Positions 1 through 27,807 of a DNA stretch of 61,319 nucleotides are shown in pieces. The stretch covers positions 1-61,319 of the forward strand of contig CAZBTU010000003.1 of NCBI GenBank assembly GCA_964494905.1. The letters run 5' to 3'. Position 1 is the first letter of the stretch. Each line of letters begins with the position of its first letter. The notes below the pieces were generated by a model that was not told the origin of the DNA, made no database searches, and was given only the letters and a program-made list of their open reading frames with translations. The position numbers were made by a program, and so were the translations under genes. The DNA comes from an uncultured Pseudomonadales bacterium (lineage in GTDB: Bacteria > Patescibacteriota > Microgenomatia > UBA1400 > PJMF01).

Positions 1-18
1 TAAGTCTTAAGAATATAA

Positions 19-57
19 GCAAAAAATAGTTCAAACTGAGGATTTGTGGGCTCACAA
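19..57 (+). repeat. Island interspersed repeat, copy A (short form)
   Basis: GCAAAAAATAGTTCAAACTGAG + 10-nt variable spacer + CTCACAA. Same core and orientation as the copies at 1071, 3128 and 8036. Lies just downstream of the APH gene. Confidence 0.6.
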
Positions 58-82
58 TCAATAATTTCAATCATCTCCAAAC

Positions 83-991
83 CTAATCAATTTCTATCTC
101 TGCAAGCGCGTTCGCGACATTTACAAAACTATCAAGGAAATCTGCATTGTCTTCAACTGCCCATAATGACGATAAGACTGTCTGAAATAATCCCCATAAA
201 TAAATTCTCTTAGAATTTAAATCTAATATTCGAGAAAATGTGTAAATACGATTTTTAAGAATTTCCTTAAGTTTAGGATCACTCCCAATTGCTGGAGGAT
301 TTCTAAGAAATGTAGCAACTTCATATGCTTTTTCACCAATGATTCCAGAAGGATCAATTACTATCCAACCCTTTACAGAGTCAAAAATTATATTGAACTG
401 ATGCAAATCTCCGTGTAAAAGAAACTCCTCTTCTGGATTTTGGGTCAAAAGAATATATGCATCTTGAGCTTTCTTTAAAATGTCCGCAGAAAAAAGCGTA
501 TTCATTGGTGATAATTCTTTAAGCCTAAGAAAGTCCTGATATAGTTCATCTAAACTTCTAAAATCTGAAGAAACATCAACTTTTTTCCACAATCGATCCA
601 TAAGTGATGCAGCTATAATAATTGCTTCATCTTCTTGTATCGTGGCAAGAGTTTGTGCTGGGCTTATTTTTTCTAAAAGAATAGCTGGGATAGATTCATC
701 CACTTGTAATACTTTTGGAACTGGACCATCCTTTTGCAATTTTAAATAATTAATTTCACGATAAAATTCTTGATCTGGATAACTTACTTTAAGAACTATA
801 TCGCTTCCATTCTTAGTTTTGCCTTGAGCCACATAATTGCAATAACTATTTTTGAAAGGAGCTTCAATCTCGATATGCCAGTCTTGTTGTAATTTTTCTA
901 TACTACTCGGAAGTTCTTGTAGCCATTTTTTTCCCGCCTCACCTCGTGAGAGCATAAGCTCATTTAATTGTCTTGGTATATTTATTTGCAT
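83..991 (-). CDS. Aminoglycoside O-phosphotransferase, APH(6)/streptomycin 6-kinase (StrB-like) family
   Basis: LHGDLHQFNIIF...GWIVIDPSGIIGE matches the HGDLHxxN catalytic loop and the IDP motif of APH(6) enzymes. The C-terminal half aligns by eye with StrB. The ATG at 991 (MQINIPR) lies 9 nt downstream of a TATAAT (1006-1001 on minus). The ORF-track start at 1000 is a TTG. Confidence 0.8.
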   Translation of the reverse strand: MQINIPRQLNELMLSRGEAGKKWLQELPSSIEKLQQDWHIEIEAPFKNSYCNYVAQGKTKNGSDIVLKVSYPDQEFYREINYLKLQKDGPVPKVLQVDESIPAILLEKISPAQTLATIQEDEAIIIAASLMDRLWKKVDVSSDFRSLDELYQDFLRLKELSPMNTLFSADILKKAQDAYILLTQNPEEEFLLHGDLHQFNIIFDSVKGWIVIDPSGIIGEKAYEVATFLRNPPAIGSDPKLKEILKNRIYTFSRILDLNSKRIYLWGLFQTVLSSLWAVEDNADFLDSFVNVANALAEIEID

Positions 992-1070
992 AATAATCAA
1001 ATTATACTACTAGAAAAAAACAGTAATCAGTTAATACTTTCATAATTTAATTCTATACAATATATAAGAC

Positions 1071-1127
1071 GTAGCCTCTCGAGGTCTGCAAGAAATGGTT
1101 CAAACTGAGTTGCCTTAGGGTCACAGT
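1071..1127 (+). repeat. Island interspersed repeat, copy B (long form)
   Basis: GTAGCCTCTCGAGGTCTGCAAGAAATGGTTCAAACTGAG + 11-nt spacer + GGGTCACAGT. The left arm GTAGCCTCTCGAGGTCTGCAA is identical to copy D at 8036. Confidence 0.65.
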
Positions 1128-1146
1128 AAAAATAGACATCTTTGGC

Positions 1147-1932
1147 ATGGGAATAAAAGACGAAACAAATTATAAAAGAATTTTAGAAGCTTTACTGATA
1201 GTTGTACTTTTTGTCCTGTTTTTTACATATTTCTGTGCTTTGGACATTTTAAGAAATTCAGCGTCCGAACTGTTAAGGGACGTTCGCCCTGAATTAATTG
1301 GTGCTATCATTACATATTTTTTGATTGAAAAAGCACTTTCTTTTTATAGAGCAAGAGAAGAACAAAGGCGCCTTAAGTTAACTCATGATATGTTAAAATC
1401 AGTACTAAATACGTACATAGATCTTGCAGCATCACTATATAAATCGACCCTAAAAGAAAAAATTCAAATACCAAATTTAGATACATTTTTTAATTCTAAT
1501 TTTGTTGGTTCCATAAACAAGATTGATTTGTCCTCAGAATCTTCAATGTTAGAAATGGATAATCTTGCTTTTACTTCTTATAAGGGAATTCTACTACACA
1601 ATGATTTAGAAAATTTTATCAACATCCACTACTACGAGATAAGCAGTGAGATGTTAGATGCTCTGCTAGAATTTAAAGGTAAACTAATAGCTCTCGCTGG
1701 CTTAAAACAACTCTTTCAAACTCGTAAGCGCGCATTAAAAATTAACATCCCAGATACAACTAATTTGGGGGATCTTTTTGAGATATCGATGAATGAGTTT
1801 AAAAATATAGTTAAATTATTTAACAAAGCTAATCCAAAAAATCCAATTAAACTAAATACTAAAATTTTAGAAGATGGTGTTTGGAATGAAAAGCATGCTC
1901 CAAAATTCGGAAGTGGTATAAAAATGGATTAA
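1147..1932 (+). CDS. Hypothetical membrane protein (two N-terminal TM helices, soluble C-terminal domain)
   Basis: Long ORF in the AT-rich island. Hydrophobic stretches ILEALLIVVLFVLFFTYFCAL and PELIGAIITYFLI. No recognisable motif. Confidence 0.55.
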   Translation: MGIKDETNYKRILEALLIVVLFVLFFTYFCALDILRNSASELLRDVRPELIGAIITYFLIEKALSFYRAREEQRRLKLTHDMLKSVLNTYIDLAASLYKSTLKEKIQIPNLDTFFNSNFVGSINKIDLSSESSMLEMDNLAFTSYKGILLHNDLENFINIHYYEISSEMLDALLEFKGKLIALAGLKQLFQTRKRALKINIPDTTNLGDLFEISMNEFKNIVKLFNKANPKNPIKLNTKILEDGVWNEKHAPKFGSGIKMD

Positions 1933-1955
1933 GCTGTTGAGACCTAGGGTCACAA
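1933..1955 (+). repeat. Partial copy of the island repeat (right arm only)
   Basis: GCTGTTGAGACCTAGGGTCACAA resembles ACTGAGTTGCCTTAGGGTCACAG of copy B. Sits immediately after the stop of ORF 1147-1932. Confidence 0.4.
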
Positions 1956-1982
1956 ATTATTCATTTTTAATACTAAAAACTG

Positions 1983-2026
1983 TGGCGCGTATTTTGGCGC
2001 GTATGTGGCGCGAACTGTGATATACT
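1983..2026 (+). promoter_or_regulatory. Fic1 promoter/operator: three phased TGGCGCG direct repeats plus an extended -10
   Basis: TGGCGCG at 1983-1989, 1995-2001 and 2006-2012 (spacing 12 and 11 bp). TGaTATACT at 2018-2026. The ATG at 2034 is only 7 nt after the -10, so the transcript is near-leaderless. Confidence 0.55.
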
Positions 2027-2033
2027 CATTACT

Positions 2034-3086
2034 ATGTATACTCCAAAATTTACTATTACCTCTGAAATAACAAATCAAATAGCTGAGATTGAAGGTATTC
2101 GCACCATTGTAGATCAAAGCAATATTCTACCAGAGAAAGAAATAGCCCTACGATACAGAGCAACTGTAGAAGCAATACATAGCTCAACTACAATTGAAGG
2201 CAATCAACTAAACAAAAAACAAGTTGAGGCTGTACTTGCTGGAAAAGCTGTGGCACAAACTGAGTATGCCATTACTGAAGTAAAAAATTACAAAAATGCT
2301 CTTGACTGGCTACAAATTAGAAAACAAAACTCTAAACAAATCTCAATTGAAGATATCCTAAAAATACACGAGCTAACTATGGATGGACTTTTACCAAAAG
2401 AAAAAACTGGTCATTTGCGTCCGGGAGAAGTATATATTGTTGACATTATTAATAATGATGAGCAAGTTCGCTACCATGGTCCAAAATCTGAATTACTTCC
2501 TGATTTACTTTCAGATCTGTGTAAATGGCTGGAATTCGAAGCCAGTAAACTGCATCCAGTATTAGCTGCAAGCATCCTTCATTATGAATTTGTTTCAATA
2601 CATCCATTTAGCGATGGAAATGGTAGAGTTACTCGATTATTAACAATGCTCTACTTATCTCTGCGTCAATACGATTTTAGAGGAGTACTTGTCCCAGAGA
2701 TTTATTATCTTGATCATCGTATGCAATATTACAATGCTTTAAACCAAGAAAATGAATATAGTAAGCAAAGAAATGCAAATCTTACTCCATGGATTGAATT
2801 TTTCGTCAAAGGATTTTTAACTACAACCAAACACTTAAAAACAGAAATTACTATTGCTCAAGCAGTTAATCCCAAAAATGTAACCATTCGTCTGTCGCAA
2901 GAAGAAATACAGTTGCTCGACTTTGTGAAACAAATGGGTTCAATTTCGTTGGAAGAAACTTTAGAAATTCTACAAATTCCTAGAAGAACTGCTCAAAGAA
3001 GGCTGAGTGAATTAGTTGATAAAGGACTATTACGATTAAACAGCAGTGGTAAAAATACTAATTATATAGCGCATGTTCACAAGTAA
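2034..3086 (+). CDS. Fic family protein, class II (intramolecular inhibitory helix), with C-terminal winged-HTH-like domain
   Basis: Fic core motif HPFSDGNGRVTR (HxFx[D/E]GNGRxxR). Upstream inhibitory motif STTIEGN ([S/T]xxxE[G/N]). The C-terminal LSQEEIQLLDFVKQMGSISLEETLEILQIPRRTAQRRLSELVDKGLL looks like a wHTH. Confidence 0.88.
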   Translation: MYTPKFTITSEITNQIAEIEGIRTIVDQSNILPEKEIALRYRATVEAIHSSTTIEGNQLNKKQVEAVLAGKAVAQTEYAITEVKNYKNALDWLQIRKQNSKQISIEDILKIHELTMDGLLPKEKTGHLRPGEVYIVDIINNDEQVRYHGPKSELLPDLLSDLCKWLEFEASKLHPVLAASILHYEFVSIHPFSDGNGRVTRLLTMLYLSLRQYDFRGVLVPEIYYLDHRMQYYNALNQENEYSKQRNANLTPWIEFFVKGFLTTTKHLKTEITIAQAVNPKNVTIRLSQEEIQLLDFVKQMGSISLEETLEILQIPRRTAQRRLSELVDKGLLRLNSSGKNTNYIAHVHK

Positions 3087-3127
3087 AGCCAAGCTCTTTT
3101 AGTCGAGCATATGTCTTGAGGATACTG

Positions 3128-3168
3128 GCGAAAAATAGTTCCAACTGAGGGTGTGTGAACTCACAGCG
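3128..3168 (+). repeat. Island interspersed repeat, copy C
   Basis: GCGAAAAATAGTTCCAACTGAG + GGTGTGTGAA spacer + CTCACAGC. A degenerate left arm (ATGTCTTGAGGATACTG) lies at 3111-3127. Located in the convergent gap between Fic1 and the 1148-aa gene. Confidence 0.6.
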
Positions 3169-3224
3169 TTTTTCTCTAGAGTTTTTCACACCCTAAGTGC
3201 AACATTGAACTATTCTTACTTTTT

Positions 3225-3261
3225 TGGCACAATTTTTGGCGCGATTATGGCACAATATAGT
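3225..3261 (+). promoter_or_regulatory. Orphan Fic1-type operator/promoter-like element with no downstream ORF
   Basis: TGGCACA (3225-3231), TGGCGCG (3237-3243) and TGGCACA (3248-3254), with the same 12/11-bp phasing as the Fic1 operator. A TATAGT follows at 3256-3261. It points into the 3' end of the convergent 1148-aa gene. Confidence 0.4.
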
Positions 3262-3347
3262 TTGTATTTACTCAAAATGTAACTTTATAAAGTATTTGAA
3301 GATACAGTAATTTTGCTTTATACTGTGGCAAGACCGACAGGGAATAG

Positions 3348-6300
3348 CTAGTTCAATGCTTCAATATATTTATCAATTTGTTCCTTCATGAATGATGTGG
3401 CATTTGATTGATATGATTTTAATAAGTTAATTATTTCACTCGGTGAAATTATCTGTTGCCATTGATCACTTTTTGATTTATAACTTTCAATAAATTCATA
3501 AAAAAATGTAGGATTTTGAGTTACCTCTCTTATGAATATTCTGGCATCTCTCATTTCTCCTGAGTTAAGTAAGATCGGATTGGAAAGAATAAGCTCTTTG
3601 CGATATGTTGGTAAAATCAAAAAAAGATATTCAAATTGTTTTTCCGAAGCAATTGAAGCAAAGAAATTATTAGGTAGACCTGTTGAATTCACTATATCAA
3701 AAACATAGTGTTCACCATGTAGATCTTTTATCCCACTCAATACATTTAGGTAATCCTTAATCATAAAAGTTTCACCTGAATTCATAAAAGCATCTATTTG
3801 ATCAAAATTACTAACAATATTGGCTAGTGTTGTATAACCATAATCATCATAAATACCACGAAATATTTTATTGATTTGATCTTGATTAAGCTGCCCAAAG
3901 TATTCCTTACAAAGGGTAAAGTATGGGTCAGACTCATCTGCAAGATAAAGTTTTTGCAAGAATTCAGTTCGAAAAAGAGTAAACAGAATCAATTGCTTTG
4001 CCATGGGATCGATGACCATGAACTTATCCAAATATTCTGTATCAAGTTTATCTAAATCTCTGATCGCATCAGGGCTTACTGGCACAGTAAGATCAGAAAG
4101 GTTTGGACTAAGAAGAATAAATCGATTGAAGAGTGAACCACCCAGTTTAACATAGATAACGTTACCTGTATTGTCTTCAAATTCAACAACTTCACCGGTT
4201 ATCAATTTTTGTAGAAGTTCTCTGTATAGCACATTGTCATCAAATTCGACAACTTCGCCGGATATGAATTCCTGTGGTAATCGCGGATCAAATCCATACC
4301 AATTTGCATTTGTGTCAACCGCGATAAATCGTAATTGCGAACCTATTTCTCCACTTTTTGTTTCCGGTTTCGGTGCACCAGGTAGATCATCAATTATTTC
4401 ATCAAATACTGCAAGGTTACTCATTAAATAGTCCAATTGATCTCTGAGTTTTTTACTCCCATAAGGATCTCCTGAATATCCTTGATATATTCCAATATAA
4501 TCCTGAAGCAAGCCGCCAATACTCGCGGACGTAGGTGATACACCTGCTATAGCAAGCAGATTCATAATATGATACATCCCACCAGCTAGGTTAGCCGGAT
4601 CAAAGTTTTTCATTAGAAAATCTTTAGAAGGTATATCCCAGTATTTAGATTCTGGGAGCAGTAACGCTAGATCAGCCGCAGTAAATCCTTTTGAAAAAGG
4701 GTCTTCGATCATTGTCTGAGCCAGAAATCCGGAATCAGAATTATTTAATGAACCTATAGGAGTACCTATAAATGGGTTGTTTCTCGTAATCAGTTTTAAA
4801 GCGATAGTTACATCCCACATTGAGGAGTAGAGATCACCGTCATTTTTAACAAGCGCAAAGGCTAATATATCGGAGATAGGAACTTGGTTTTGTGTATGTT
4901 CATATTGTTGAAAAATAAAATTTTGATAATCAGAAAAATATAAAGTAATTTGTTCAATATTTAGCTGTTTAACTGTTGGGTGAAGCGAGTTATACAAAAC
5001 ACAAACGTCGTGGAAATTAGAAAAATTGCTACTGGATAGATGATAAACTTGTTGTAGTGATTCCGATGTTATTGACAAGAATAGAGGATCACTATTATTA
5101 TTTTTTGATAAAGTATAATCCGTGACAACATCATCTAATCCGACGTAGTCAGGATGAACTTGCCAGAAAACAGGCGAGGGGTCGTGATTATATTTTCTCG
5201 CCATTGTTTCATATGTTGAAAATGCATTCGTTAATAACACATCAATTGTTTGATAATTCAGGTTTTCTTTTTCTAATAATTCATATAGTGCTGTCTGCTT
5301 TTCTTCTGGGAATAATTCGATTTGTTCTCGTAACTGATCATCAAAATCTCTTTCTTTTTCCGTAAGGACAGTGATCGCAAACTCGAATAACTTTTTTGCA
5401 GACTCGGGATCACTTAAATCAGCATTTATCATCTGAATAAATTGTGGGTCTGTGAATATATCAATCAGTGCTTCACTAGGTAGTTTAGAGATAAGATTCA
5501 AGGTCTGATGTTCAAACAGTTCTAAAAATTGTGCTCCCATCTCTGTAGTAGTAAGCCACATTAGACCTTTTTGAATAATCATTTGTTCCTGATTATGGAA
5601 AAAATGTTCTACCGATTCACTCGCAGCCGAAACTATATCAGCTGCTGTCGGACCAAAAACTGAAAGTAAATATAATATATTCACTAAGATTAAATCTTTT
5701 TTTAAATCGGCAGCTCTATCACTATTTGTTGCAACTTGTTCAATTCTTGTACGGATTCTGTTTATCTCTCTTGGTATTTTTTGACCCTGTTGTTCCATGC
5801 AGACACACCACTGGACTATTTTTTGTGTCGGCGTAAGACTATCATCACTAAGCACCAAACTTGCAATTTTAGGCTTCAGTTCTTCAAGAGTTTTCAGGGA
5901 TCGTAAACGACTGACGTTGTCGCCATAGCTGTATGCACCTGATCTCTGATCTTCAAGCAATTGGCCATAAACAACAGCGTGTGAATGTTCTCGAGAACCC
6001 TGTGTAGTCCGTAATGTTTGAGTCAGTACACCCATGTGTTTAAGAGTTTTCTCAATTTCACTTTTACCTTTTTCTTTAAGTGTGTTTTCTAAACCAAAGA
6101 AATCATTTATTCTACCAAAAAATTTGGTTCTTCCAATACTTTCAGCAGCTAGTCCATCAAGCGCCATTGCTTTATTGAGGTTCCATTGTTTCAAAAAATC
6201 ATGATTAGCATCTTTTAAAAAAGAAGCTGCTGTATTCCACCAGGTTTTTGACTCAACTGCAAGAAAATCATAATAACTGATTTTATCGGTAAAACCATCT

Positions 6301-6794
6301 TCGCCTGATTCAAGTTTAAGAGTTAGGAAAACAAATTGCCGTAGTTTTTCAATTGAAGTTTGCTCTAGATCTATTTTCCCCAAACAATCTATAATTTGTT
6401 CTGCGTTTGTGAGCTGTTTTTCTACTAATGGACAAAGATCCGCAAATACTTCAATCATACTCATTCGCACATTTCGTTCTTTCGAATTGTTTGGCTGAAG
6501 AGAGGTGACAGAATCAAATGAATAGGGTTTGATGTATTTTAGAAAACGTTCTACCTTAACTGACAACGTTGTGCTAGGTTCTACAAGGATTTCATTTACC
6601 TTATCATCAAAATCATTTGAGCTTATCGTCGATGCATGAACTTTCTTAATGAAATCAGCTTCTTCTTTCAGTAAATGCAGTATTTTCTTTGAAGTTATTG
6701 CATTTATTTCTTCTAATAAACGCGTCTCAGTCAAGAGCTTCTTTCCAATTTCAAAATTCAAAGTATCAATATTTTCAACAGGTTTTTCGTTCAA
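3348..6794 (-). CDS. Large orphan protein (1148 aa), function unknown
   Basis: Uninterrupted 3.4-kb ORF in AT-rich DNA. Apparent TTG start; the next in-frame Met is about 105 codons in. No catalytic motif recognised. Internal duplicated segment SGEVVEFDDN / TGEVVEFEDN (29-nt DNA repeat at 4171-4199 and 4234-4262). Co-directional with the Fic gene 137 nt upstream. Confidence 0.75.
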   Translation of the reverse strand: MNEKPVENIDTLNFEIGKKLLTETRLLEEINAITSKKILHLLKEEADFIKKVHASTISSNDFDDKVNEILVEPSTTLSVKVERFLKYIKPYSFDSVTSLQPNNSKERNVRMSMIEVFADLCPLVEKQLTNAEQIIDCLGKIDLEQTSIEKLRQFVFLTLKLESGEDGFTDKISYYDFLAVESKTWWNTAASFLKDANHDFLKQWNLNKAMALDGLAAESIGRTKFFGRINDFFGLENTLKEKGKSEIEKTLKHMGVLTQTLRTTQGSREHSHAVVYGQLLEDQRSGAYSYGDNVSRLRSLKTLEELKPKIASLVLSDDSLTPTQKIVQWCVCMEQQGQKIPREINRIRTRIEQVATNSDRAADLKKDLILVNILYLLSVFGPTAADIVSAASESVEHFFHNQEQMIIQKGLMWLTTTEMGAQFLELFEHQTLNLISKLPSEALIDIFTDPQFIQMINADLSDPESAKKLFEFAITVLTEKERDFDDQLREQIELFPEEKQTALYELLEKENLNYQTIDVLLTNAFSTYETMARKYNHDPSPVFWQVHPDYVGLDDVVTDYTLSKNNNSDPLFLSITSESLQQVYHLSSSNFSNFHDVCVLYNSLHPTVKQLNIEQITLYFSDYQNFIFQQYEHTQNQVPISDILAFALVKNDGDLYSSMWDVTIALKLITRNNPFIGTPIGSLNNSDSGFLAQTMIEDPFSKGFTAADLALLLPESKYWDIPSKDFLMKNFDPANLAGGMYHIMNLLAIAGVSPTSASIGGLLQDYIGIYQGYSGDPYGSKKLRDQLDYLMSNLAVFDEIIDDLPGAPKPETKSGEIGSQLRFIAVDTNANWYGFDPRLPQEFISGEVVEFDDNVLYRELLQKLITGEVVEFEDNTGNVIYVKLGGSLFNRFILLSPNLSDLTVPVSPDAIRDLDKLDTEYLDKFMVIDPMAKQLILFTLFRTEFLQKLYLADESDPYFTLCKEYFGQLNQDQINKIFRGIYDDYGYTTLANIVSNFDQIDAFMNSGETFMIKDYLNVLSGIKDLHGEHYVFDIVNSTGLPNNFFASIASEKQFEYLFLILPTYRKELILSNPILLNSGEMRDARIFIREVTQNPTFFYEFIESYKSKSDQWQQIISPSEIINLLKSYQSNATSFMKEQIDKYIEALN

Positions 6795-6931
6795 AACATG
6801 TACTTTTTTTTTAGCAAAATTTCTGGCATGTATTTACTTTAACACGATTTTGTTGATTTTGCACAAAAATGTGAGTTCAATACCCTATGAGAATTTGTTG
6901 AAAAAATACCTGTCATTCATTAAATAAAATC

Positions 6932-7966
6932 TTACTTATCACTCAACACATAATAAGTAGACCGACCCTTACCCTCGCGTTTAATTAAACCTAATTCAAT
7001 CAATCTTTGAAAATCGAGTGTTCTGGTAGCCTTTGCCCTATCAGTCAACTTTGAATATGCTCTATCTGTAATAAAACCGTTTTGCTTTATATAATTAATT
7101 AATTTTAAATGATATGTCTCAATTTTAGTTTCAGGGGAATAACCAGTTTGCGGAATTATCTTTTTCACTCTGTGCAACTCATCAATGATACCTTCTGTAA
7201 AATACTCAAGCCAACTAGTGAAATCAATTGTTTCTCTCAATTCATTATAATCACCACATTCACCAACAGTCTGAAAATATTTTGTTACATTTTTATTGTA
7301 ATAGTTCTCAAAACTAAACAGATTAAATGTATTAAGTCCCATTTTTGCCAACAGAACTTTAGTCATTAATCTTGTGGTTCTACCATTCCCATCAATAAAA
7401 GGGTGGATAATAACCATTTGTTTATGAAAAATGCCTGCCAAAATCAAAGAATCCACAATATTTTTATTTCGGATAACAAATGTGGCAAGTTCTGTCATTA
7501 ATTTATTAACTTGATCATGATCAGGAGGTAAAAATACAACCTTGCCTGTTCTAGGATCATTAACAACTACAGGCTTTTTTCTCAGTCTACCTGACTCAAA
7601 ATCAGGTAACAAGCCGCCAATGACTTTTTTATGAACTGCTAAAATTAGATTTAAAGAAATAGATAAATCATCTTTTTTACTAAGATCATTCAAGTATTCA
7701 AGTGCCTCAATATAGTTAAGCACTTCTCGTTCACTATCACGAATGTATTCTGGTCTATTCTTTAATACTTTTTTAACTTCAGTTAAAGGTAATGGATTAC
7801 CCTCAATACTCGTAGATGCAAAGGCAGAAACTTCTCTTGCCTTTCTTTCAAAATCAATCAATACAACTTTGGGAAATCTTTGATTATTGAGTTCTTCGAC
7901 TAATAAAGCTATATACTTTATATTTGAAAGCAGCTTATTTGTAATCGTATACTTTGGCGTAAACAT
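6932..7966 (-). CDS. Fic family protein, class II, with C-terminal wHTH-like domain (paralog of 2034-3086)
   Basis: Fic motif HPFIDGNGRTTR. Inhibitory motif STSIEGN. N-terminus MFTPKYTITNKLL parallels MYTPKFTITSEIT of Fic1. C-terminal LKLINYIKQNGFITDRAYSKLTDRAKATRTLDFQRLIELGLI is HTH-like. Confidence 0.88.
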   Translation of the reverse strand: MFTPKYTITNKLLSNIKYIALLVEELNNQRFPKVVLIDFERKAREVSAFASTSIEGNPLPLTEVKKVLKNRPEYIRDSEREVLNYIEALEYLNDLSKKDDLSISLNLILAVHKKVIGGLLPDFESGRLRKKPVVVNDPRTGKVVFLPPDHDQVNKLMTELATFVIRNKNIVDSLILAGIFHKQMVIIHPFIDGNGRTTRLMTKVLLAKMGLNTFNLFSFENYYNKNVTKYFQTVGECGDYNELRETIDFTSWLEYFTEGIIDELHRVKKIIPQTGYSPETKIETYHLKLINYIKQNGFITDRAYSKLTDRAKATRTLDFQRLIELGLIKREGKGRSTYYVLSDK

Positions 7967-7968
7967 AT

Positions 7969-8004
7969 TAGTCTAATAATAGTCGATTATTAGTCGATTG
8001 TCAA
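7969..8004 (-). promoter_or_regulatory. Fic2 promoter/operator: TTGACA-17-TATTAT overlaid by three phased TAGTC(G/T)A repeats
   Basis: On the minus strand, TTGACA (8004-7999), a 17-nt spacer, then TATTAT (7981-7976). The ATG at 7966 is 9 nt after the -10. On the plus strand, TAGTCTA 7969-7975, TAGTCGA 7980-7986 and TAGTCGA 7991-7997 (11-bp phasing). Confidence 0.6.
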
Positions 8005-8035
8005 TACTCTGATTTTATGCTAAGTATAGTAAGAT

Positions 8036-8089
8036 GTAGCCTCTCGAGGTCTGCAAAAAATAGTTCCAACTGAGGGCGCGTGGGGTCAC
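8036..8089 (+). repeat. Island interspersed repeat, copy D (long form), at the right edge of the AT-rich island
   Basis: GTAGCCTCTCGAGGTCTGCAAAAAATAGTTCCAACTGAG + GGCGCGTGG spacer + GGTCAC. Coincides with the switch from about one-third GC to higher-GC DNA. Confidence 0.65.
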
Positions 8090-8156
8090 TCTATTGGAGT
8101 TTGTGAGAGTTGATTAGTCTTGCTACTTCTAATAGCAACCAATTTCATCAACTCGA

Positions 8157-8771
8157 TCAGAAGCAGTATGACAACATAATTTCCCTTGCTGTTAGTTTGT
8201 AAAAATTGAAAGCAGCTAGCATTTCGTTTGTGGCATTCTGACTCAGTCGATTTTCACTTCCAGCGATAAACTCAAGACGATCGTCTAACACTTTCGAGTT
8301 AGTTAATGACGATATCCGCCTTGTGACAGACCAAACAGTATCAATGAATGGCGGTAGCTTCATGCCTCTTCTAATCTCAACAAATTCTTCTTCCTCCACT
8401 TGTCTCCCCAACAAAGATGAGATGTATAGCTGCTCCACCCCAAAATCAGTATCGGCATCAAATTTAGTATTAAACACTTTTCGAATAGTAGGAATGATCT
8501 CCTCACTGACAGCTGTTAGAATTTCCTCGACACGTTCGGCTGTGGATACTTGCTTCCCAGTAACACGATCTGTATTGATGGGAAAAAGTGTCGGGACAGC
8601 GTCCTCAGTCAATTCAATGGGCGAGAGGGGCGGCTGCTTAATTGTTGAAAAAACATCGTCGATATCAGGTTGCTGCAAATGTTGTGCCTCAAATTCAAAT
8701 AGGTCCTTTTGCAATCGTGTTCTGTTTATATGTGAAGTGACTGATGCTAGTAACTCACGAGCCAGATGCAA
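8157..8771 (-). CDS. Hypothetical protein (204 aa)
   Basis: ORF co-directional with and 66 nt downstream of the PD-(D/E)xK-like gene. No motif recognised. Confidence 0.55.
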   Translation of the reverse strand: MHLARELLASVTSHINRTRLQKDLFEFEAQHLQQPDIDDVFSTIKQPPLSPIELTEDAVPTLFPINTDRVTGKQVSTAERVEEILTAVSEEIIPTIRKVFNTKFDADTDFGVEQLYISSLLGRQVEEEEFVEIRRGMKLPPFIDTVWSVTRRISSLTNSKVLDDRLEFIAGSENRLSQNATNEMLAAFNFYKLTAREIMLSYCF

Positions 8772-8837
8772 CTGTTCACTAAACTTCTTTTTTTGATCAG
8801 TTGTAGAACTGGGAGGATGTTCAATCTCAGCAATTTC

Positions 8838-9305
8838 TCAAGCGAATGATGCATAAATAAGCTTGTTTCTATAGATCCCGAATGATTCAGCACTTGCAAT
8901 CTTATCAACCTCAAAAGAAGAGTCTACATCAGGTTTCCTAATTTTAACTTCAACTATTGCGGCAACTTCGTATACATCTCCGACGTCTTTTACTACAATA
9001 AAATCAGGCGGATATATTTTTGCATTACTGAGTGAATGCGCCAGCAACTGATTATCAGGAACAGGCGACACATTGCGGATATCTTTCATCGCATGCAGGA
9101 TGAATTGCCCAAGCATCTCAGACTTAGTTCCGGCCCGAGTAAGTATGCCACGATGCTCGAGCATCATTTGTGCTAAATACTCACCAGCCAGACCGACGGC
9201 ATTTTCTAAAGTTTTAGGCCTTTCGAATCGATCAACGACAACTAAATCTGGCTGTAACGATGGACTTATATGCTTAATCTCATCAATCTGGTGTTCCTGA
9301 TTCAT
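8838..9305 (-). CDS. PD-(D/E)xK nuclease-fold-like small protein
   Basis: PPDFIVVKDVGDVYEVAAIVEVKIRK gives PD ... E-x-K in the usual order and spacing. Start refined to the ATG at 9305 (MNQEHQ), 6 nt after TGtTATACT (9320-9312, minus). The longer track ORF (to 9443) would run through that promoter. Confidence 0.45.
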   Translation of the reverse strand: MNQEHQIDEIKHISPSLQPDLVVVDRFERPKTLENAVGLAGEYLAQMMLEHRGILTRAGTKSEMLGQFILHAMKDIRNVSPVPDNQLLAHSLSNAKIYPPDFIVVKDVGDVYEVAAIVEVKIRKPDVDSSFEVDKIASAESFGIYRNKLIYASFA

Positions 9306-9365
9306 TTTGTAAGTATAACAAATATTCATATGATACTTGCATTGATGATATGATATAACCAACCT
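9306..9365. promoter_or_regulatory. Divergent near-leaderless promoter pair
   Basis: Minus strand: TGtTATACT at 9320-9312, 6 nt before the ATG at 9305. Plus strand: TGaTATAAC at 9351-9359, 6 nt before the ATG at 9366. Confidence 0.45.
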
Positions 9366-9863
9366 ATGAGAGAAAGTTTGTCTAGTTACTTCAAACAGCA
9401 TTTGAAGAAAGAAAATAAGATCGTTCAACATGAAATTCGGCAAATTTCAGATGAACAAGAACAGGTAATGATCGAACATATAGCCAAGATTTGCCCCCCC
9501 GATTTCCCAATCGGCAAAGGACTAAGAGGTGGCTTCGACCTTAAGATGGTTGCTCAGTATCAACCTGAGCAATGCGTCACAATCCTTGGTAAAGCTTTTG
9601 TAATTCCAAAAGCCGGAAAAGCGTCTCTACAAATTGAACAACAAGACACTCATAGAACAGATGGGAGAAAAGAGTACATCTTTGAAGTGACAGATCGCTC
9701 TGTCTTTGTTGCAAGCTCTGGTAGTGCTACAGAACTTGTAGTCATCACGGAGGTGCCTGAGGGCTTACCCTCTGATCCTTTTGCCAGAACCTATGTGTTT
9801 ATTACCAATGATGCATTGCGAACCATTCTGGAATCACACCAGAGCATCTCTTCAGTCATCTAA
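9366..9863 (+). CDS. Hypothetical protein (165 aa) sharing an AKI(C/Y)PPDF motif with the divergent neighbour
   Basis: IEHIAKICPPDF compared with LSNAKIYPPDF in 8838-9305. Nothing else recognisable. Confidence 0.55.
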   Translation: MRESLSSYFKQHLKKENKIVQHEIRQISDEQEQVMIEHIAKICPPDFPIGKGLRGGFDLKMVAQYQPEQCVTILGKAFVIPKAGKASLQIEQQDTHRTDGRKEYIFEVTDRSVFVASSGSATELVVITEVPEGLPSDPFARTYVFITNDALRTILESHQSISSVI

Positions 9864-9917
9864 CCTACCCTGATCCAAGCAGTTACTCTTGCAGAGTAAA
9901 TATGCTATAAGAAATGC

Positions 9918-12380
9918 ATGCATGAATTGACTAGAGTTAATGAAATTAACAAACCGGCAGAGTTACCACCAAAAATCTCCCAGGTAACAGAGAAACCCAT
10001 ACCTCAAGAACTTCAACCATACAAAATTAAATCCGTCACAGAAGTTGGCCTAGAAACCGGCACAACTAGTGTTGTTTGCCAACTCGACAACAAACATGCG
10101 TACAATGCCCAGAGCTTGGCTGCTATTCGAGATCAGTTGGACCAGAATCGAGTTGCGGTAATGTTAGATAACAACTTCAAGGACAAAACCAGTGCTAGCT
10201 GGGTAAAGATCTTCAAGACCGTCAATGGCATAAAAACACTGGTAGCGCGATTTGACCCTCAGAGCAATGTTCTCCATGTTGATCACCACCTCACGACAGC
10301 AGAAATTGGTGAGACACCTCTCAACCAAGAGCTCAACCCAGAATTGCCAGCGTCAACGACACCACTGGTTGTTGCTTTTTTTCGCGGGCTGAGTGAAGGG
10401 ACACTCTTTACCGAAGATGAAAACTTCCCTGGTTGCATTGAATCTCTCAACAACACTTGGGATGCTCACCAATTCATGGTGTTTGTAGATCATTTTGATC
10501 CAGACTCTACAGAGTCATCAATGGCAGTGCTGAAGGCTAGCAGGGACAATGTTAATCACCAGTACTTTGATGAATTGGCAGCAACCACCCTGGACGCCGA
10601 CCACCGCGGGACGTATAGAACTAAAGATGGAGCCTCAAATGCTCGCGAAAAACTGGTCAAGGTACTCTCAGAACTCAGTATCCTGAGTGTACCAAGAACG
10701 ATCAAAGCACTTCAGGTTCTTGAAAATATCACCGACCACAATCAGCTTGCTGAAGCCCTGATAGCCAACAACATGCCAGACGCTGCTCAGTTATATCTGA
10801 ACTTTGAAAAAATATTGCAGTCCACCGAAGCAGTTGCTGAGTCTATGGCGGCACACTACGATGGTCATGGGAACGTGGTCTATAACGTGTTGGCGGGTGA
10901 TACAGAGCTAGATATGGCATACTTGGCGAGTGCTCTCCAGGAGAAATATGGCAAAGAGATCGGTCCAGACGGCATTGAAGTTTGTTTGATAGTCAAAGAT
11001 TATGGCCAGGTTGATGCTAGTAATTTTCCTGATGTTCACGAGTACGGCGTCTGGGTAAGAACCCTGCATGAAGCAGTGGATCTCAATAAATCTGGAGCAT
11101 TGCTTGAACTACTTGGCATCTATGGCCGGAGCACAGCCCGAGGGAACCGAAATGCAATTTCACACGTTTCACAACATGGAGTGACCTTTACTATTACGGG
11201 TACGGCTGATCTACTTGCCGACCTTAATGCAGGGAGCAGGTGGCGCTCTAAAAACGCATGGGGACTGATTAAAACCCTTGAAATGATCTTCGACCGTGAC
11301 CCAGCTTCACACACTATAGAACAATATATTGGATCTCGACCCGATAGTGTGCGCAGGTCCAGAACAATACCGGGGACCAACCAAGAACGAGGCGTTGCGT
11401 TGGACACGATCAGTACGGGTGAGCGAAGTGGTGAACAACGCGTCATCAAGTACCTCATTTATCCACCGGGTGAATCCCCTAATCAGGAATTCATATCAGA
11501 AGTACATACTGCCGGAGTTGCTGCTGCACTCCTTTGGCGTGACGGGCGACAGTTGGTGCTCATCCCAGAAACAATCGGACTTCACATCAAACCAGGGTTC
11601 GTCGGAGCAGAGTTTGAACGTGTTCAGATGCTTAATGATCCCAAACTAAATGAGATGGGTATGCCAATCGTGGAAGACGGGCAACATCAGTTTGCTCAGG
11701 TAAGTGAGCACTCAGAAGCAATGCTAGCCCACTTAGATGACATGAGAAATGTTCCCATAGCTATTTTAGATGCAGGGAAAGTAAGGGTGGCAAGTGCAGC
11801 TGAGTACAAATCAGATGTAACAAACTTACTTGCTGATTTACCAATAGGTTTACTACCTCTGCAGCAGATAGAGATGATACAACAACTAGAGTTTCACTTT
11901 GATCAGAATGAGAGGGTCTTAGTAAATGGCCGCACAAAACCTGATAACATGTTTGTAAAAGTGGACCGAATTGGGCAAACTGACTGGCAGTCAATCAAGC
12001 AAGGACATAGATATGAAGATCAAGTGTCCCTCCTCAGTAGTTTTCTGTTGATGAACCCTGCAGAGATAAACCGATACGCCAGGGGGATGGATTTCAAGAA
12101 CCCTGATGTACAATTTCTATTTATCAGTCGGGCACTCTTTGCTTTGCAGTACAACATAGATAAAATAAAAAGACTTGAAGAAGAGAACAATTATAGTGAA
12201 GTGGAAATCACAAAACTGAAGGTGCGTATTCACCTTGAGATTGTCACATGGGCACTGTCTGATCAAAAAGATTTAAGCAGGTTGCAACAATTAAGTGGAG
12301 AATTACGCAAAAAGCTGCAGGAACATAGACCAAGCACTGCACATCAAGCGAATCAGATGTTCGGTACTTCTGTTGGTTGA
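9918..12380 (+). CDS. Large hypothetical protein (820 aa) with a degenerate DHH/DHHA1-like N-terminal region and a C-terminal coiled coil
   Basis: LHVDHHL (nt 10281-10289), followed by ELPASTTPLVVAFF, resembles DHH motif III and its following helix. VWVRTLHEAVDLNKSGALLELLGIYGRSTARGNRNAIS resembles the DHHA1 ...GGGGHxNAAG segment, but the GGGH is replaced. Resemblance is by eye only. Confidence 0.6.
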   Translation: MHELTRVNEINKPAELPPKISQVTEKPIPQELQPYKIKSVTEVGLETGTTSVVCQLDNKHAYNAQSLAAIRDQLDQNRVAVMLDNNFKDKTSASWVKIFKTVNGIKTLVARFDPQSNVLHVDHHLTTAEIGETPLNQELNPELPASTTPLVVAFFRGLSEGTLFTEDENFPGCIESLNNTWDAHQFMVFVDHFDPDSTESSMAVLKASRDNVNHQYFDELAATTLDADHRGTYRTKDGASNAREKLVKVLSELSILSVPRTIKALQVLENITDHNQLAEALIANNMPDAAQLYLNFEKILQSTEAVAESMAAHYDGHGNVVYNVLAGDTELDMAYLASALQEKYGKEIGPDGIEVCLIVKDYGQVDASNFPDVHEYGVWVRTLHEAVDLNKSGALLELLGIYGRSTARGNRNAISHVSQHGVTFTITGTADLLADLNAGSRWRSKNAWGLIKTLEMIFDRDPASHTIEQYIGSRPDSVRRSRTIPGTNQERGVALDTISTGERSGEQRVIKYLIYPPGESPNQEFISEVHTAGVAAALLWRDGRQLVLIPETIGLHIKPGFVGAEFERVQMLNDPKLNEMGMPIVEDGQHQFAQVSEHSEAMLAHLDDMRNVPIAILDAGKVRVASAAEYKSDVTNLLADLPIGLLPLQQIEMIQQLEFHFDQNERVLVNGRTKPDNMFVKVDRIGQTDWQSIKQGHRYEDQVSLLSSFLLMNPAEINRYARGMDFKNPDVQFLFISRALFALQYNIDKIKRLEEENNYSEVEITKLKVRIHLEIVTWALSDQKDLSRLQQLSGELRKKLQEHRPSTAHQANQMFGTSVG

Positions 12381-17358: not shown

Positions 17359-17408
17359 GGTTCACTCCTCCTTATCAGATTGCACTACTGTAGTGTATAC
17401 CGACTGAT

Positions 17409-18284
17409 CTAACCATTGGCAACTTCATATCCTATTCGACTCTCAAAACCATCAAAAGTATGGTTGCAACCCTCGAGCAAAGTCGTTTCACACTGAGGAA
17501 TATGTTGTTGAATTAACTTGAGAGCTTGCCTTGAATCAACCCCAAACTCAGGGTACACAACAAAAGGATCTTTGTCTCCAAGTATCACCTTTACTGGCAC
17601 TGTGATACCTTTTAAACCAGGAAAGTCGTAACCACTGCGATAAAAATCCCAAATGCAGTTTACATCGCTCTGGGTATACCAAGACAAAAACGTCTGAAAA
17701 GACATTGGGAAGTCTTCCATTTCTGGAACTGGCACAATTTCTCGTCCATTTCCTTGCGAGACCATTTCTGTAGCCCTGTCTAGAAAAACTTGCCAACTTC
17801 CTGGAGCTTTTCTTTCCAAAAAAGCGTTCTTGTCGAAAGGTGCTAGGAGCACAAGTTTCTGGACGAGGTCTGGGTGCGCACCTTCTTTGAGATAGCGGAC
17901 AGCTTTAAGTGTGCCCAGTGAGTGACCGATTAGGCAAACTTGCCCGTAGCCCCTGCTTGCAAGCTCTTGAATAAAGGCAGAAATATCGAGGTGTGCATCC
18001 TCAAGCTGCTCAAAGTAGGATCCAATATTCACTGATTTTCCTGATGCGTTGCTAAACTCTGTCTCCAGACCAGTACCTCTAGTTTGGGCCAATACAAATG
18101 TATTTCCTGATTCTTTCAGTGCAAGAGCTACGGCGTGATAAAACGGATGTGAATAGAAATCAGTTGTGAATCCATGGATGAACAAATAGGCTTTTTTCTC
18201 CAAATGACCGAAATGTGCAAGGCCACTTAACCGCAATCCGTCTTTGGTAGTTACTCGTAGATAGTCATAGGGTGTGTTCATCAT
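17409..18284 (-). CDS. Alpha/beta-fold hydrolase
   Basis: Nucleophile elbow CLIGHSLGT (GxSxG), HGF oxyanion region (LFIHGFTTD), and C-terminal GDKD...CNH consistent with an Asp/His triad. Confidence 0.75.
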   Translation of the reverse strand: MMNTPYDYLRVTTKDGLRLSGLAHFGHLEKKAYLFIHGFTTDFYSHPFYHAVALALKESGNTFVLAQTRGTGLETEFSNASGKSVNIGSYFEQLEDAHLDISAFIQELASRGYGQVCLIGHSLGTLKAVRYLKEGAHPDLVQKLVLLAPFDKNAFLERKAPGSWQVFLDRATEMVSQGNGREIVPVPEMEDFPMSFQTFLSWYTQSDVNCIWDFYRSGYDFPGLKGITVPVKVILGDKDPFVVYPEFGVDSRQALKLIQQHIPQCETTLLEGCNHTFDGFESRIGYEVANG

Positions 18285-26271: not shown

Positions 26272-27393
26272 CTAACTATTTGGTTTTTGCAAGTCTTTTA
26301 CAGCCTCCTCAATATCTTCAGCCACAGAAACTTCAACAACTTTCTCATCAGCATCAGCTGGCTGTGCAGTCAGAGTTTCATTAGTTATGATGTCATCGCG
26401 TACAACTTTGTTACCGTAGAGCAGACCCCCATCTACTAGCCCCGGATCAGCTACTTGCTCTGATGTCAGGCCGCTTGCACCATTGCCACCTGATGAATCT
26501 ACTTGCTGTTGTGGTACTTGTTCTTCTACTGGAGCAGCTGGAGCTGCTGCACCATCTTTACCATCACTTGCCTTTTTGTTGTCTTTTTTATCAGTTCCAG
26601 GTGTTTGCAACTCAGTAATAATCTCTGTCAACCGCGCATGAAGCGTTGCAAAAGTGCTCTGCCCAGCAACATGGTCGGCGTCTTTGTCGAATCTTGCCAC
26701 GAAGTCATAGTTCGAGGTGTCATCCAGTTCGTATCCAGTCACTGATTCATTGGTATTTGTTTGCTCTAACTCAAGAAAGAGAGTTTTAAAGAGGTCATGA
26801 TACTCGGCAGGAAACATCCTGGAGTACTCTCGCATGAGATTACTCACACCAGATAGGTATTTGCCAAGCTCAGCAACTGCCCTGTTAATCCCATCTGCTT
26901 CATGTGCTGCTTGCTTGAGCTGGTCTATCTGCAAACCCCCGGTCTCAGCAGATTGTGCGATGGCCGAAAGTCTAGAGATCAAGCCCCCTTCATAATTCCG
27001 GTACGAGGCGAGGTCTGCAAATCCCTGTGTGATAAGCAGTTTCATACGATCAACTAAAAGTGAATTTCTATCGACATTTGCGTCATCAGGCTGACTCTCA
27101 TTAATGGCATCATCCATCTCATGCAATTTTAGTCGTCTGTTGTGATGTTTTTCACCCGAGAACACAAAGTTTTCAGGTACATTTTTGCCTAATTCTGTCT
27201 GCCAATACCCATCAGCAAAGTTAAATGTCAGCTCTGCCTGTCGATTCAGTTCCTCTGGGGTTGGGACATGATTGTCAAGGTCCTTCTCAGCTGAAGCTTC
27301 ACCAAGGTCTTTGTTCAGCTCTTGTTCTGGAGTTTGTTGGGTTGGTGCTTGTTGCATAGTAGTTCTGTTATACCTGTAAGCTGAAAACTGCAC
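26272..27393 (-). CDS. Hypothetical protein (373 aa) with a low-complexity acidic/Ala-Pro-rich C-terminal part
   Basis: Long ORF 15 nt downstream of 27409-27807 on the same strand. No motif recognised. Confidence 0.55.
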   Translation of the reverse strand: MQFSAYRYNRTTMQQAPTQQTPEQELNKDLGEASAEKDLDNHVPTPEELNRQAELTFNFADGYWQTELGKNVPENFVFSGEKHHNRRLKLHEMDDAINESQPDDANVDRNSLLVDRMKLLITQGFADLASYRNYEGGLISRLSAIAQSAETGGLQIDQLKQAAHEADGINRAVAELGKYLSGVSNLMREYSRMFPAEYHDLFKTLFLELEQTNTNESVTGYELDDTSNYDFVARFDKDADHVAGQSTFATLHARLTEIITELQTPGTDKKDNKKASDGKDGAAAPAAPVEEQVPQQQVDSSGGNGASGLTSEQVADPGLVDGGLLYGNKVVRDDIITNETLTAQPADADEKVVEVSVAEDIEEAVKDLQKPNS

Positions 27394-27408
27394 AAGCGCA
27401 AGTCACAC

Positions 27409-27807
27409 TCATGGGTCAAACCAATCAAACAACTGAAGCAAAACTGCACGCTTCCCTGCCGGCTCGCTAATTGACATTAAGAGCTCTAGTATTTCCCCTG
27501 TAACCTTTCGATAGTTCTCCACTCCAGCAGCAGCAACTACTCGCTTTTGTGCAAACTTTGAAGGAGAGCAACCGCTTCCACGTGTGACATCAACAAACAT
27601 TACCTCATTTGTCGCTTGGTTTGTAACTAGAAAATCGGGTGTGGTCTTGGTCTTCTTTACCTCACCATTCTTATCTGCCACTGGCTCTTCACAACTTATG
27701 GAAGGGGAGAGCTGAACCATAAAACCTGCAAGCACAGCCTGAACTGAAAACTCTCTCTCAAACTTGTCTTGACCAAGTGGTTGTATTTGTTCTGTCCGAT
27801 TCGACAT
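27409..27807 (-). CDS. Small PD-(D/E)xK-like protein, distant paralog of 8838-9305
   Basis: DKFEREFSVQAVLAGFMVQ and TPDFLVTNQATNEVMFVDVTR parallel DRFERPKTLENAVGLAGEYLAQ and PPDFIVVKDVGDVYEVAAIVEVK. The third motif is DVT rather than ExK. Confidence 0.45.
   Translation of the reverse strand: MSNRTEQIQPLGQDKFEREFSVQAVLAGFMVQLSPSISCEEPVADKNGEVKKTKTTPDFLVTNQATNEVMFVDVTRGSGCSPSKFAQKRVVAAAGVENYRKVTGEILELLMSISEPAGKRAVLLQLFDWFDP

Follow-up and report, generated by a model that had tools for sequence, protein, structure and literature searches.

Four open reading frames (ORFs) at positions 8157–12380 of contig CAZBTU010000003.1 were described in an initial annotation as two 2-gene units that diverge from a 60-nt promoter region and, lying next to a mobile-looking island, resemble a defence or conflict system. 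Is this a four-gene system? The window is the whole stretch analysed, 61,319 nt. It is one contig (C3) of a 1.45-Mb, 137-contig, 90%-complete genome of an ultra-small bacterium that is assigned to Candidatus Woesebacteria in public records. We find that 8157–12380 holds not a four-gene system but three lineage-restricted genes, one of which (8157–9305) is interrupted, and consider this the best explanation of the stretch as a whole, and a fairly probable one. Most likely, they are species-restricted accessory genes beside an island hot spot, and include a broken gene for a probable, highly diverged PD-(D/E)xK nuclease.

An interrupted gene on the minus strand

The 90%-identity cluster of the 155-aa protein, the first product of the minus-strand pair, includes a 470-aa protein, P0009 (MBP9819462.1), from the metagenome-assembled genome GCA_018062735.1. 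This genome represents a sister lineage, whose DNA is 91–97% identical to the window and contains a single intact 470-codon ORF at the place of the 155-aa and 204-aa ORFs. In the window, these two ORFs are in the same frame with one TGA and 22 open codons between them. The genes and the features within and between them are:

8157–8771, minus strand: the '204-aa ORF'
8598–8607, minus strand: in-frame deletion of 147 nt (49 codons) compared with the sister lineage, at short direct repeats (TGAGGAYG; from blastn blocks)
8772–8837, minus strand: 22 open codons, formerly read as spacer, that are coding sequence in the intact gene
8838–8840, minus strand: in-frame TGA that splits the gene; AAA (Lys) at this site in the sister lineage
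8838–9305 including the TGA (coding part 8841–9305), minus strand: the '155-aa ORF'
9306–9365: divergent intergenic spacer of 60 nt, or 36 nt with a start at 9329
9366–9863, plus strand: 165-aa orphan protein, weakly similar in a local stretch to the core of the 155-aa domain
9918–12380, plus strand: 820-aa orphan protein, soluble and under purifying selection

When the two lineages are aligned side by side, the split reads GCT TGA GAA in the window and GCT AAA GAA in the sister lineage. The 22 codons translate to EIAEIEHPPSSTTDQKKKFSEQ, aligned with EIAEIEHAASSKTDQKKEFSEQ in the comparison with the sister lineage, and have a ratio of non-synonymous to synonymous divergence (dN/dS) of 0.12 and a codon score of 0.291. 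As the two ORFs share a frame that is broken by a single TGA, and the sister lineage has a 470-codon ORF in their place, we conclude that they are one interrupted gene. The divergent orientation described in the initial annotation is real, but the minus-strand 'unit' is a single gene. The TGA was found in five independent assemblies from different runs and is therefore not an assembly error. Recoding was also considered, and rejected, as TGA ends 138 of 555 long frames (25%) and is an ordinary stop codon in this genome.

Codon-usage log-odds, trained on 423 long frames from other contigs of the genome, are gene-like for all four ORFs, which exist as originally called. In the annotated frame they score 0.144–0.176, compared with 0.139 ± 0.047 for long genes of the genome, and all four exceed the off-frame 99th percentile of 0.081. 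As their scores are in the range of genes and above this percentile, the ORFs are coding and of native composition. Their GC content is 0.41–0.45, and the cassette array to the left is AT-rich. By its codon score, an antisense 157-aa ORF (8323–8796) is a shadow.

The stop codon is accompanied by two other differences from the sister lineage. The 49 codons missing at 8598–8607 have a codon score of 0.192 in the sister lineage, where the in-frame mean is 0.141, and are thus coding. As they are coding and flanked by the direct repeats, their loss points to a microhomology deletion in the window lineage. Homology to the sister lineage then ends at 8179, seven codons before the stop of the '204-aa ORF'. 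Beyond this point the sister ORF extends for ~45 further codons, and the 3′ end in the window has been replaced at the island junction. What is left, the '204-aa ORF', aligns to residues 157–428 of P0009, and its TTG start is doubtful. The dN/dS of this part relative to the sister lineage is 0.10–0.22, which indicates that it was under constraint during most of the divergence. Three lesions would thus have accumulated in the window copy: the in-frame TGA, the in-frame 147-nt deletion and the replaced 3′ end. The coding-like spacer, the 49-codon deletion and the end of homology at 8179 favour breakage in the window lineage over fusion in the sister lineage, and the gene is probably decaying in the window lineage, or reduced to a free 155-aa nuclease domain.

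Some points weigh against this interpretation. The direction of change is deduced from parsimony and codon scores with no outgroup, the last 44 codons of the sister ORF score ambiguously (0.017), and the 204-aa part, constrained over most of the divergence, may still be expressed. A working gene fission, with the 155-aa domain and the 204-aa piece made separately, via reinitiation at the TTG at 8771 or read-through of the TGA, and acting together, would fit the stability of the split genotype in five assemblies from several sequencing runs. It would also fit the gene-like codon usage (0.144) and low dN/dS of the 204-aa part, the preservation of the frame by the 147-nt deletion and the existence of a paralog, on contig C89 of the same genome, that is a free-standing ORF with no nuclease domain in front. 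However, low dN/dS would likewise be seen in a recently broken gene, and the TTG is preceded by neither an ATG start nor a visible ribosome-binding site. Moreover, the sole coding change within the lineage in the 204-aa part is non-synonymous, and junction sequence has replaced its 3′ end. Fission is a possibility that we regard as doubtful, and a broken gene is the reading retained here.

The C89 paralog is 140 aa long and 24% identical to the 204-aa protein (E = 7e-10). No other relative of the 204-aa protein was found in word-based searches, which covered 5.8 billion clustered proteins. In contig region 11–903, the paralog overlaps, by ~178 nt in another frame, the end of a 215-aa membrane-protein ORF that looks truncated or frameshifted, and the contig stops 10 nt past the stop codon of the paralog.

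The nuclease-like domain and the 165-aa protein

The PD...ExK residues that led the initial annotation to call the 155-aa protein nuclease-like are present (P100 D101 ... E119 V K121). The likeness holds at the level of motifs, where the pattern is specific to YraN and this ORF, but was not supported by profile and structure tests. The acidic residues and lysine are in a catalytic-type D...(D/E)-x-K arrangement with hydrophobic strand context (PDFIVV...AAIVEVK; D101, E119, K121). Upstream is a predicted helix that includes a Glu (GLAGEYLAQMMLEHRG; E42), giving the order helix, D strand, ExK strand. Together these form a YraN/Hjc-like motif set, G38-x2-G41-E42-x2-A45...G53, D101-FIV and E119-V-K121. 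The three core motifs match those of YraN/UPF0102 (PF02021) and archaeal Hjc in order and wording; they read as a G-x-x-G-E-x-x-A...L...G helix, a D-hydrophobic strand and a hydrophobic-E-V-K strand. A small core is a further likeness, and the first helices of the 155-aa domain and YraN are paired by hhalign. Unlike YraN, the 155-aa domain has an insertion of ~40 residues that separates the first helix/strand from the Asp strand, has no significant profile match, and is the N-terminus of a 470-aa protein with a ~300-residue C-terminal domain.

In its loose form, PD...(D/E)xK, the pattern is common in this genome: of 1662 frames at least 120 aa long, 113 contain it. Only three of these 1662 frames contain a strict PD...ExK with strand-like hydrophobic context. 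One of the other two looks by eye like RmuC, a known member of the PD-(D/E)xK superfamily. The three-part YraN-like pattern was found only in the YraN of this genome (contig C126) and in the 155-aa ORF when 2763 frames of at least 90 aa were screened, and in none of 200,000 shuffles of the 155-aa protein.

Set against this are the way in which the three-part pattern was obtained and the outcome of searches. The pattern was composed after both sequences had been viewed, and measures specificity rather than serving as an unbiased test. The 155-aa domain has no match to a Pfam clan at E ≤ 1, nor to NCBIfam or PHROGs. Alignment with hhalign to a YraN alignment built from relatives gave a probability of 1.6%, with the first helix alone paired, and a single-sequence AlphaFold2 (AF2) model had a predicted local distance difference test (pLDDT) score of 32.8, was unusable and returned no Foldseek match at E ≤ 0.001. 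No match to a PDB sequence was found at E ≤ 10, and the VRR_NUC model gave no signal in this genome. The motif residues are all kept in the sole homolog, that of the sister lineage (97% identical), and word-based searches found no relative of the 155-aa protein beyond this lineage. Sequence searches are known to miss PD-(D/E)xK families owing to extreme divergence and insertions (PMC3424549), and on this account we put the chance that the motifs mark a PD-(D/E)xK nuclease fold at roughly even or better.

If the fold is correct, the intact 470-aa protein would most likely be a metal-dependent nucleic-acid endonuclease, to which the ~300-residue C-terminal domain would supply targeting or control. 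YraN itself is a D-loop endonuclease of natural transformation that works with the ComM helicase (PMC13663708). As the window genome has its own canonical YraN on contig C126, this function should not be transferred to the 155-aa domain.

The 165-aa protein had been said to share a local motif with the 155-aa protein, and the resemblance (AKIYPPDF and AKICPPDF) is real, with a Smith-Waterman score of 52 compared with 29.6 ± 4.9 in 2000 shuffles (p = 0.0025). It is local, with 27% identity over 45 residues, and modestly above chance. Six of the seven identical motif residues are encoded by different codons, so the similarity, if real, is old. The 165-aa protein lacks the helix Glu of the 155-aa domain, and D46 of its PPDF is E in the sister lineage, which argues against a catalytic role. 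The protein may be an old partial duplicate of the 155-aa domain. No significant match to it was found in 285 other genomes of the order.

Between the two genes there is indeed a spacer at 9306–9365, where the initial annotation placed a 60-nt promoter region. However, it may be only 36 nt long, as the 155-aa ORF may begin at an upstream ATG at 9329 (163 aa are called in other assemblies), and promoter-like hexamers are not enriched, with 7 found and 9.2 ± 3.4 in shuffles. A −10-like TATGAT with TG, 11 nt 5′ of the 165-aa start, is not above chance. The spacer differs from that of the sister lineage by two substitutions, each within ATATGATA repeats. It lies inside a longer tract of high identity:

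8929–9978: tract ~99% identical to the sister lineage, with flanks at 92–94% (sliding identity)

This tract takes in the 165-aa gene and the divergent spacer, with most of the 155-aa domain on one side and the initial 60 nt of the 820-aa gene on the other. Synonymous divergence (dS) within it is 0.01–0.035, compared with 0.15–0.31 in the flanks, and it was probably acquired by recent recombination between the two lineages. Comparison of the window with a 99.85%-identical contig revealed just three coding differences, at 8434, 9622 and 12226. All are non-synonymous, giving E113V in the 204-aa part, A86V in the 165-aa protein and R770L in the 820-aa protein, and E113V recurs in two other assemblies.

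Elsewhere in the window, at 26272–27807, a 132-aa ORF (27409–27807; PDFLV...FVDVTRG) and a 373-aa ORF behind it are in one frame with two stops between them (27409–27411 and 27403–27405). The 132-aa protein is a singleton cluster, so no variant fused to the 373-aa ORF is on record. Paralogy of the 155-aa and 132-aa ORFs was considered and was not significant (Smith-Waterman score 28 compared with 27.0 ± 4.3; p = 0.39), and comparison of the 132-aa ORF with YraN by hhalign reached only 6%. The 204-aa ORF has no similarity to the 373-aa ORF.

Orphan status and the 820-aa protein

The initial annotation could assign none of the four proteins to a family. None matches Pfam, PADLOC, NCBIfam or PHROGs at E ≤ 1, and the intact 470-aa form likewise has no match in these collections. 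PDB sequence searches with the four proteins and the 470-aa form were empty, and a motif scan of the four found no transmembrane segment, signal-peptide-like start, Walker A, HExxH or CxxC. Apart from the queries themselves, the word-based searches returned the paralog on C89 and a single protein, P0002, that is 58% identical to the 820-aa protein. The 285 other species genomes of the order, searched in six frames, had no match to any of the four proteins, and nor did collections of metagenome, viral and genome contigs and phage records. Their orphan status is therefore upheld, and more strongly than the initial annotation could have known.

Relative to the sister lineage, the 820-aa gene has a dS of 0.31 and a dN of 0.034 (dN/dS 0.11), and it is under purifying selection. 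P0002 is the one relative outside the species complex. Between the two, dN is 0.32, even along the length, and synonymous sites are saturated; residues 101–200 are best conserved (71% identity). A profile built from the two sequences found only itself in an exhaustive HMMER search of 1.84 billion representatives. In three lineages of the species complex, the 820-aa gene is followed on its 3′ side by a sulfotransferase gene and then by fused ATP-sulfurylase/adenosine 5′-phosphosulfate (APS)-kinase genes, encoding 3′-phosphoadenosine 5′-phosphosulfate (PAPS) synthase. The P0002 gene is instead followed by a gene for a 1127-aa surface protein and preceded by those for a secreted 157-aa protein, an HD protein and a hydrolase. 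Near the window locus there is no counterpart of these neighbours, and none of the other cluster genes is present on the P0002 contig, which is 9.7 kb. The 820-aa protein thus appears to be conserved independently of the other two genes. Weighing against this is its dependence on one distant relative, P0002. The AF2 model of the 820-aa protein from the two-sequence alignment had a pLDDT of 39.0 and was unusable, and Foldseek returned no match at E ≤ 0.001.

Two weak leads for the 820-aa protein were disregarded. The C-terminal helices resemble the GidA C-terminal bundle of Pfam at 21.1 bits, below the cut-off of 27.1, and the corresponding PDB match had E = 0.49. A weak match in a genome of the same genus is one of low complexity, to a tail-fibre-like surface protein.

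The N-terminal half of the 820-aa protein, like the DHH/DHHA1 phosphoesterases (RecJ, NrnA, GdpP), has a DHH tripeptide and Asp/His-rich invariant motifs, and an Asp/His metal site is a reasonable guess. The protein could be viewed as a diverged phosphoesterase of the RecJ/NrnA kind, with the relevant region at 9918–11250. All four known sequences share the motifs DNNFKD, HVDHH, VDHFDPDS and DADH unchanged, and these motifs fall within the best-conserved stretch. The assembly also has no other DHH (RecJ-type) protein, and 12 of 12 relatives searched have one. However, with an assembly that is only 90% complete, a missing RecJ means little. Pfam DHH and DHHA1 were not matched at E ≤ 1, the family profile matched no DHH protein in PDB at E ≤ 10, and hhalign to 14 RecJ/NrnA proteins from relatives gave 0.35%, with the DHH motif outside the alignment. 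Nor do the motif spacing and predicted secondary structure fit those of DHH/DHHA1 enzymes; in a low-confidence model, the motifs are surrounded by strands that form one hairpin after another, and the helices of a DHH fold are missing. With the Pfam, PDB profile and hhalign tests all negative, this lead was rejected, and we consider a DHH identity very improbable.

The tRNA-Glu island and the question of defence

To the left of the interrupted gene, the window contains an array of Fic cassettes, separated from the conserved flank by:

8030–8090, plus strand: last copy of the cassette-array repeat (repeat families D1–D3), at the boundary between variable island and conserved flank

The right end of this repeat, CGTGGGGTCAC, is the last 11 bases (3′ end) of tRNA-Glu. 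All 11 bases match in the copy at 8035–8090, and the match is degenerate in other copies. Further in, the repeat also has CTGCAA and GTT in common with tRNA-Glu, and the array repeats may be remnants of tRNA-derived attachment sites. The repeat core was found only on contig C3, which begins inside an array repeat.

In the sister contig, the 470-aa gene is followed by genes for ArsP, thioredoxin, ArsR, an HD protein and GmrSD (PADLOC HEC-06, E = 1e-189). Beyond GmrSD is tRNA-Glu(UUC) (6110–6182), with its 3′ end facing the island, and then YraN, rplS, pyrG and dnaE. In the window genome, YraN, rplS and pyrG are on contig C126, whose end coincides exactly with the 3′ end of this same tRNA-Glu (1827–1900). 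The Fic cassette array (1–8090) and the ArsP-GmrSD island therefore appear to occupy the same tRNA-Glu hot spot, and the array seems to begin at the tRNA-Glu(UUC) gene. The mobile-looking island noted in the initial annotation is thus confirmed, with SoFic here and GmrSD/HEC-06 in the sister lineage.

Other assemblies of the window strain (99.7–99.9% identical) diverge at 8052, inside the repeat, and two of these continue with the left half of the repeat copy at 3110. A switch at this position indicates that the cassette adjoining the cluster varies within the population. No copy of the repeat was found to the right of the cluster, elsewhere in the genome, in another assembly or in the sister island. 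As there is none to the right, the cluster is not itself a cassette. The cluster genes are the conserved far flank of a variable island at tRNA-Glu, and not members of it. This context is like that of tRNA 3′-end islands and integron or CALIN (cluster of attC sites lacking an integron-integrase) arrays, in that the 3′ end of tRNA-Glu is where the variable segment begins, close lineages differ in what this segment contains, and the repeats inside it terminate in the last 11 bases of the tRNA. The context differs in that the cluster genes are a stable flank. The flank, including the sulfation genes and a 415-aa orphan, is absent from five relatives tested, and is accessory at the genus level. 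Synteny of the cluster genes is confined to lineages with ~90% nucleotide identity or more.

Elsewhere in the window, an alpha/beta-hydrolase gene (17409–18284) is absent from the otherwise syntenic sister contig, where 51 nt replace 855 nt (17369–18224).

With the locus placed in this way, other accounts of the cluster can be weighed. The array has no recombinase, and the cluster, at the position of an integron integrase, might encode its missing recombination machinery. The cluster is the fixed neighbour of the terminal repeat, the adjoining cassette differs in near-identical strains with the switch point in the repeat, and a nuclease-like domain is present. However, the genes are retained in the sister lineage, where the site contains neither an array nor copies of the repeat; it is in the array-bearing lineage that the nuclease-like gene is broken; and no cluster protein was found in the 285 other genomes of the order. 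We regard this account as close to refuted.

The initial annotation favoured a defence or conflict system. In such a module, kept at the border of a defence island, a nuclease effector (of the 470-aa type, or the 155-aa and 204-aa pieces) would act together with the 165-aa protein and the 820-aa protein. In both lineages the adjoining island has genes of defence type, the cluster is compact and divergent in layout, the 155-aa domain has a nuclease-like motif, and the genes are patchy, fast-evolving and decaying, as accessory genes often are. The recombination tract also spans exactly the nuclease domain and the 165-aa gene. The locus resembles the nuclease-based anti-phage systems catalogued by PADLOC and DefenseFinder, such as single-gene PD-(D/E)xK effectors and GmrSD-type enzymes of defence islands, in that a nuclease-like gene with patchy distribution and signs of decay lies beside an island, with SoFic here and GmrSD/HEC-06 in the sister lineage. 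Against such a module, PADLOC returned no families at E ≤ 1 for the 155-, 204-, 165- and 820-aa proteins or the intact 470-aa form, motifs typical of sensors, such as those of NTPases or helicases, are lacking in the 820-aa protein, and the genes are on the conserved flank, outside the variable island. Nor is there a conserved partnership across genomes: the sole distant relative of the 820-aa gene has no partner genes, and the co-conservation by which the initial annotation proposed to judge the system is not seen in P0002 or in the order. With two of the 'genes' being one broken gene, no PADLOC match and no co-conservation, a four-gene system is not supported. Beyond the neighbourhood, nothing positive supports a role in defence, and we consider one unlikely. 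Slightly less likely still is that the 470-, 165- and 820-aa proteins form a new, species-restricted conflict module (defence or toxin-immunity) at the tRNA-Glu island border, with its nuclease disarmed in the window lineage by the stop and the deletion, or that the 820-aa protein is the first of a new family of enzymes with an Asp/His metal site. We infer that the three genes are not functionally coupled, and return to lineage-restricted accessory genes as the best account.

Two public 'hypothetical proteins' of this Woesebacteria population are thus halves of one gene and their annotation can be corrected, and what looks like a pair of operons with four genes should be kept out of lists of candidate defence systems. 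The locus is a clean example of accessory genes at the edge of a tRNA-linked island being damaged, by a nonsense codon, a microhomology deletion and an overwritten 3′ end. The 470-aa and 820-aa families have next to no relatives among about 15 billion public proteins, and are typical of the many genes that lack an explanation in bacteria of the candidate phyla radiation. If the nuclease reading holds, the 470-aa protein would be a further, highly diverged branch of the PD-(D/E)xK superfamily.

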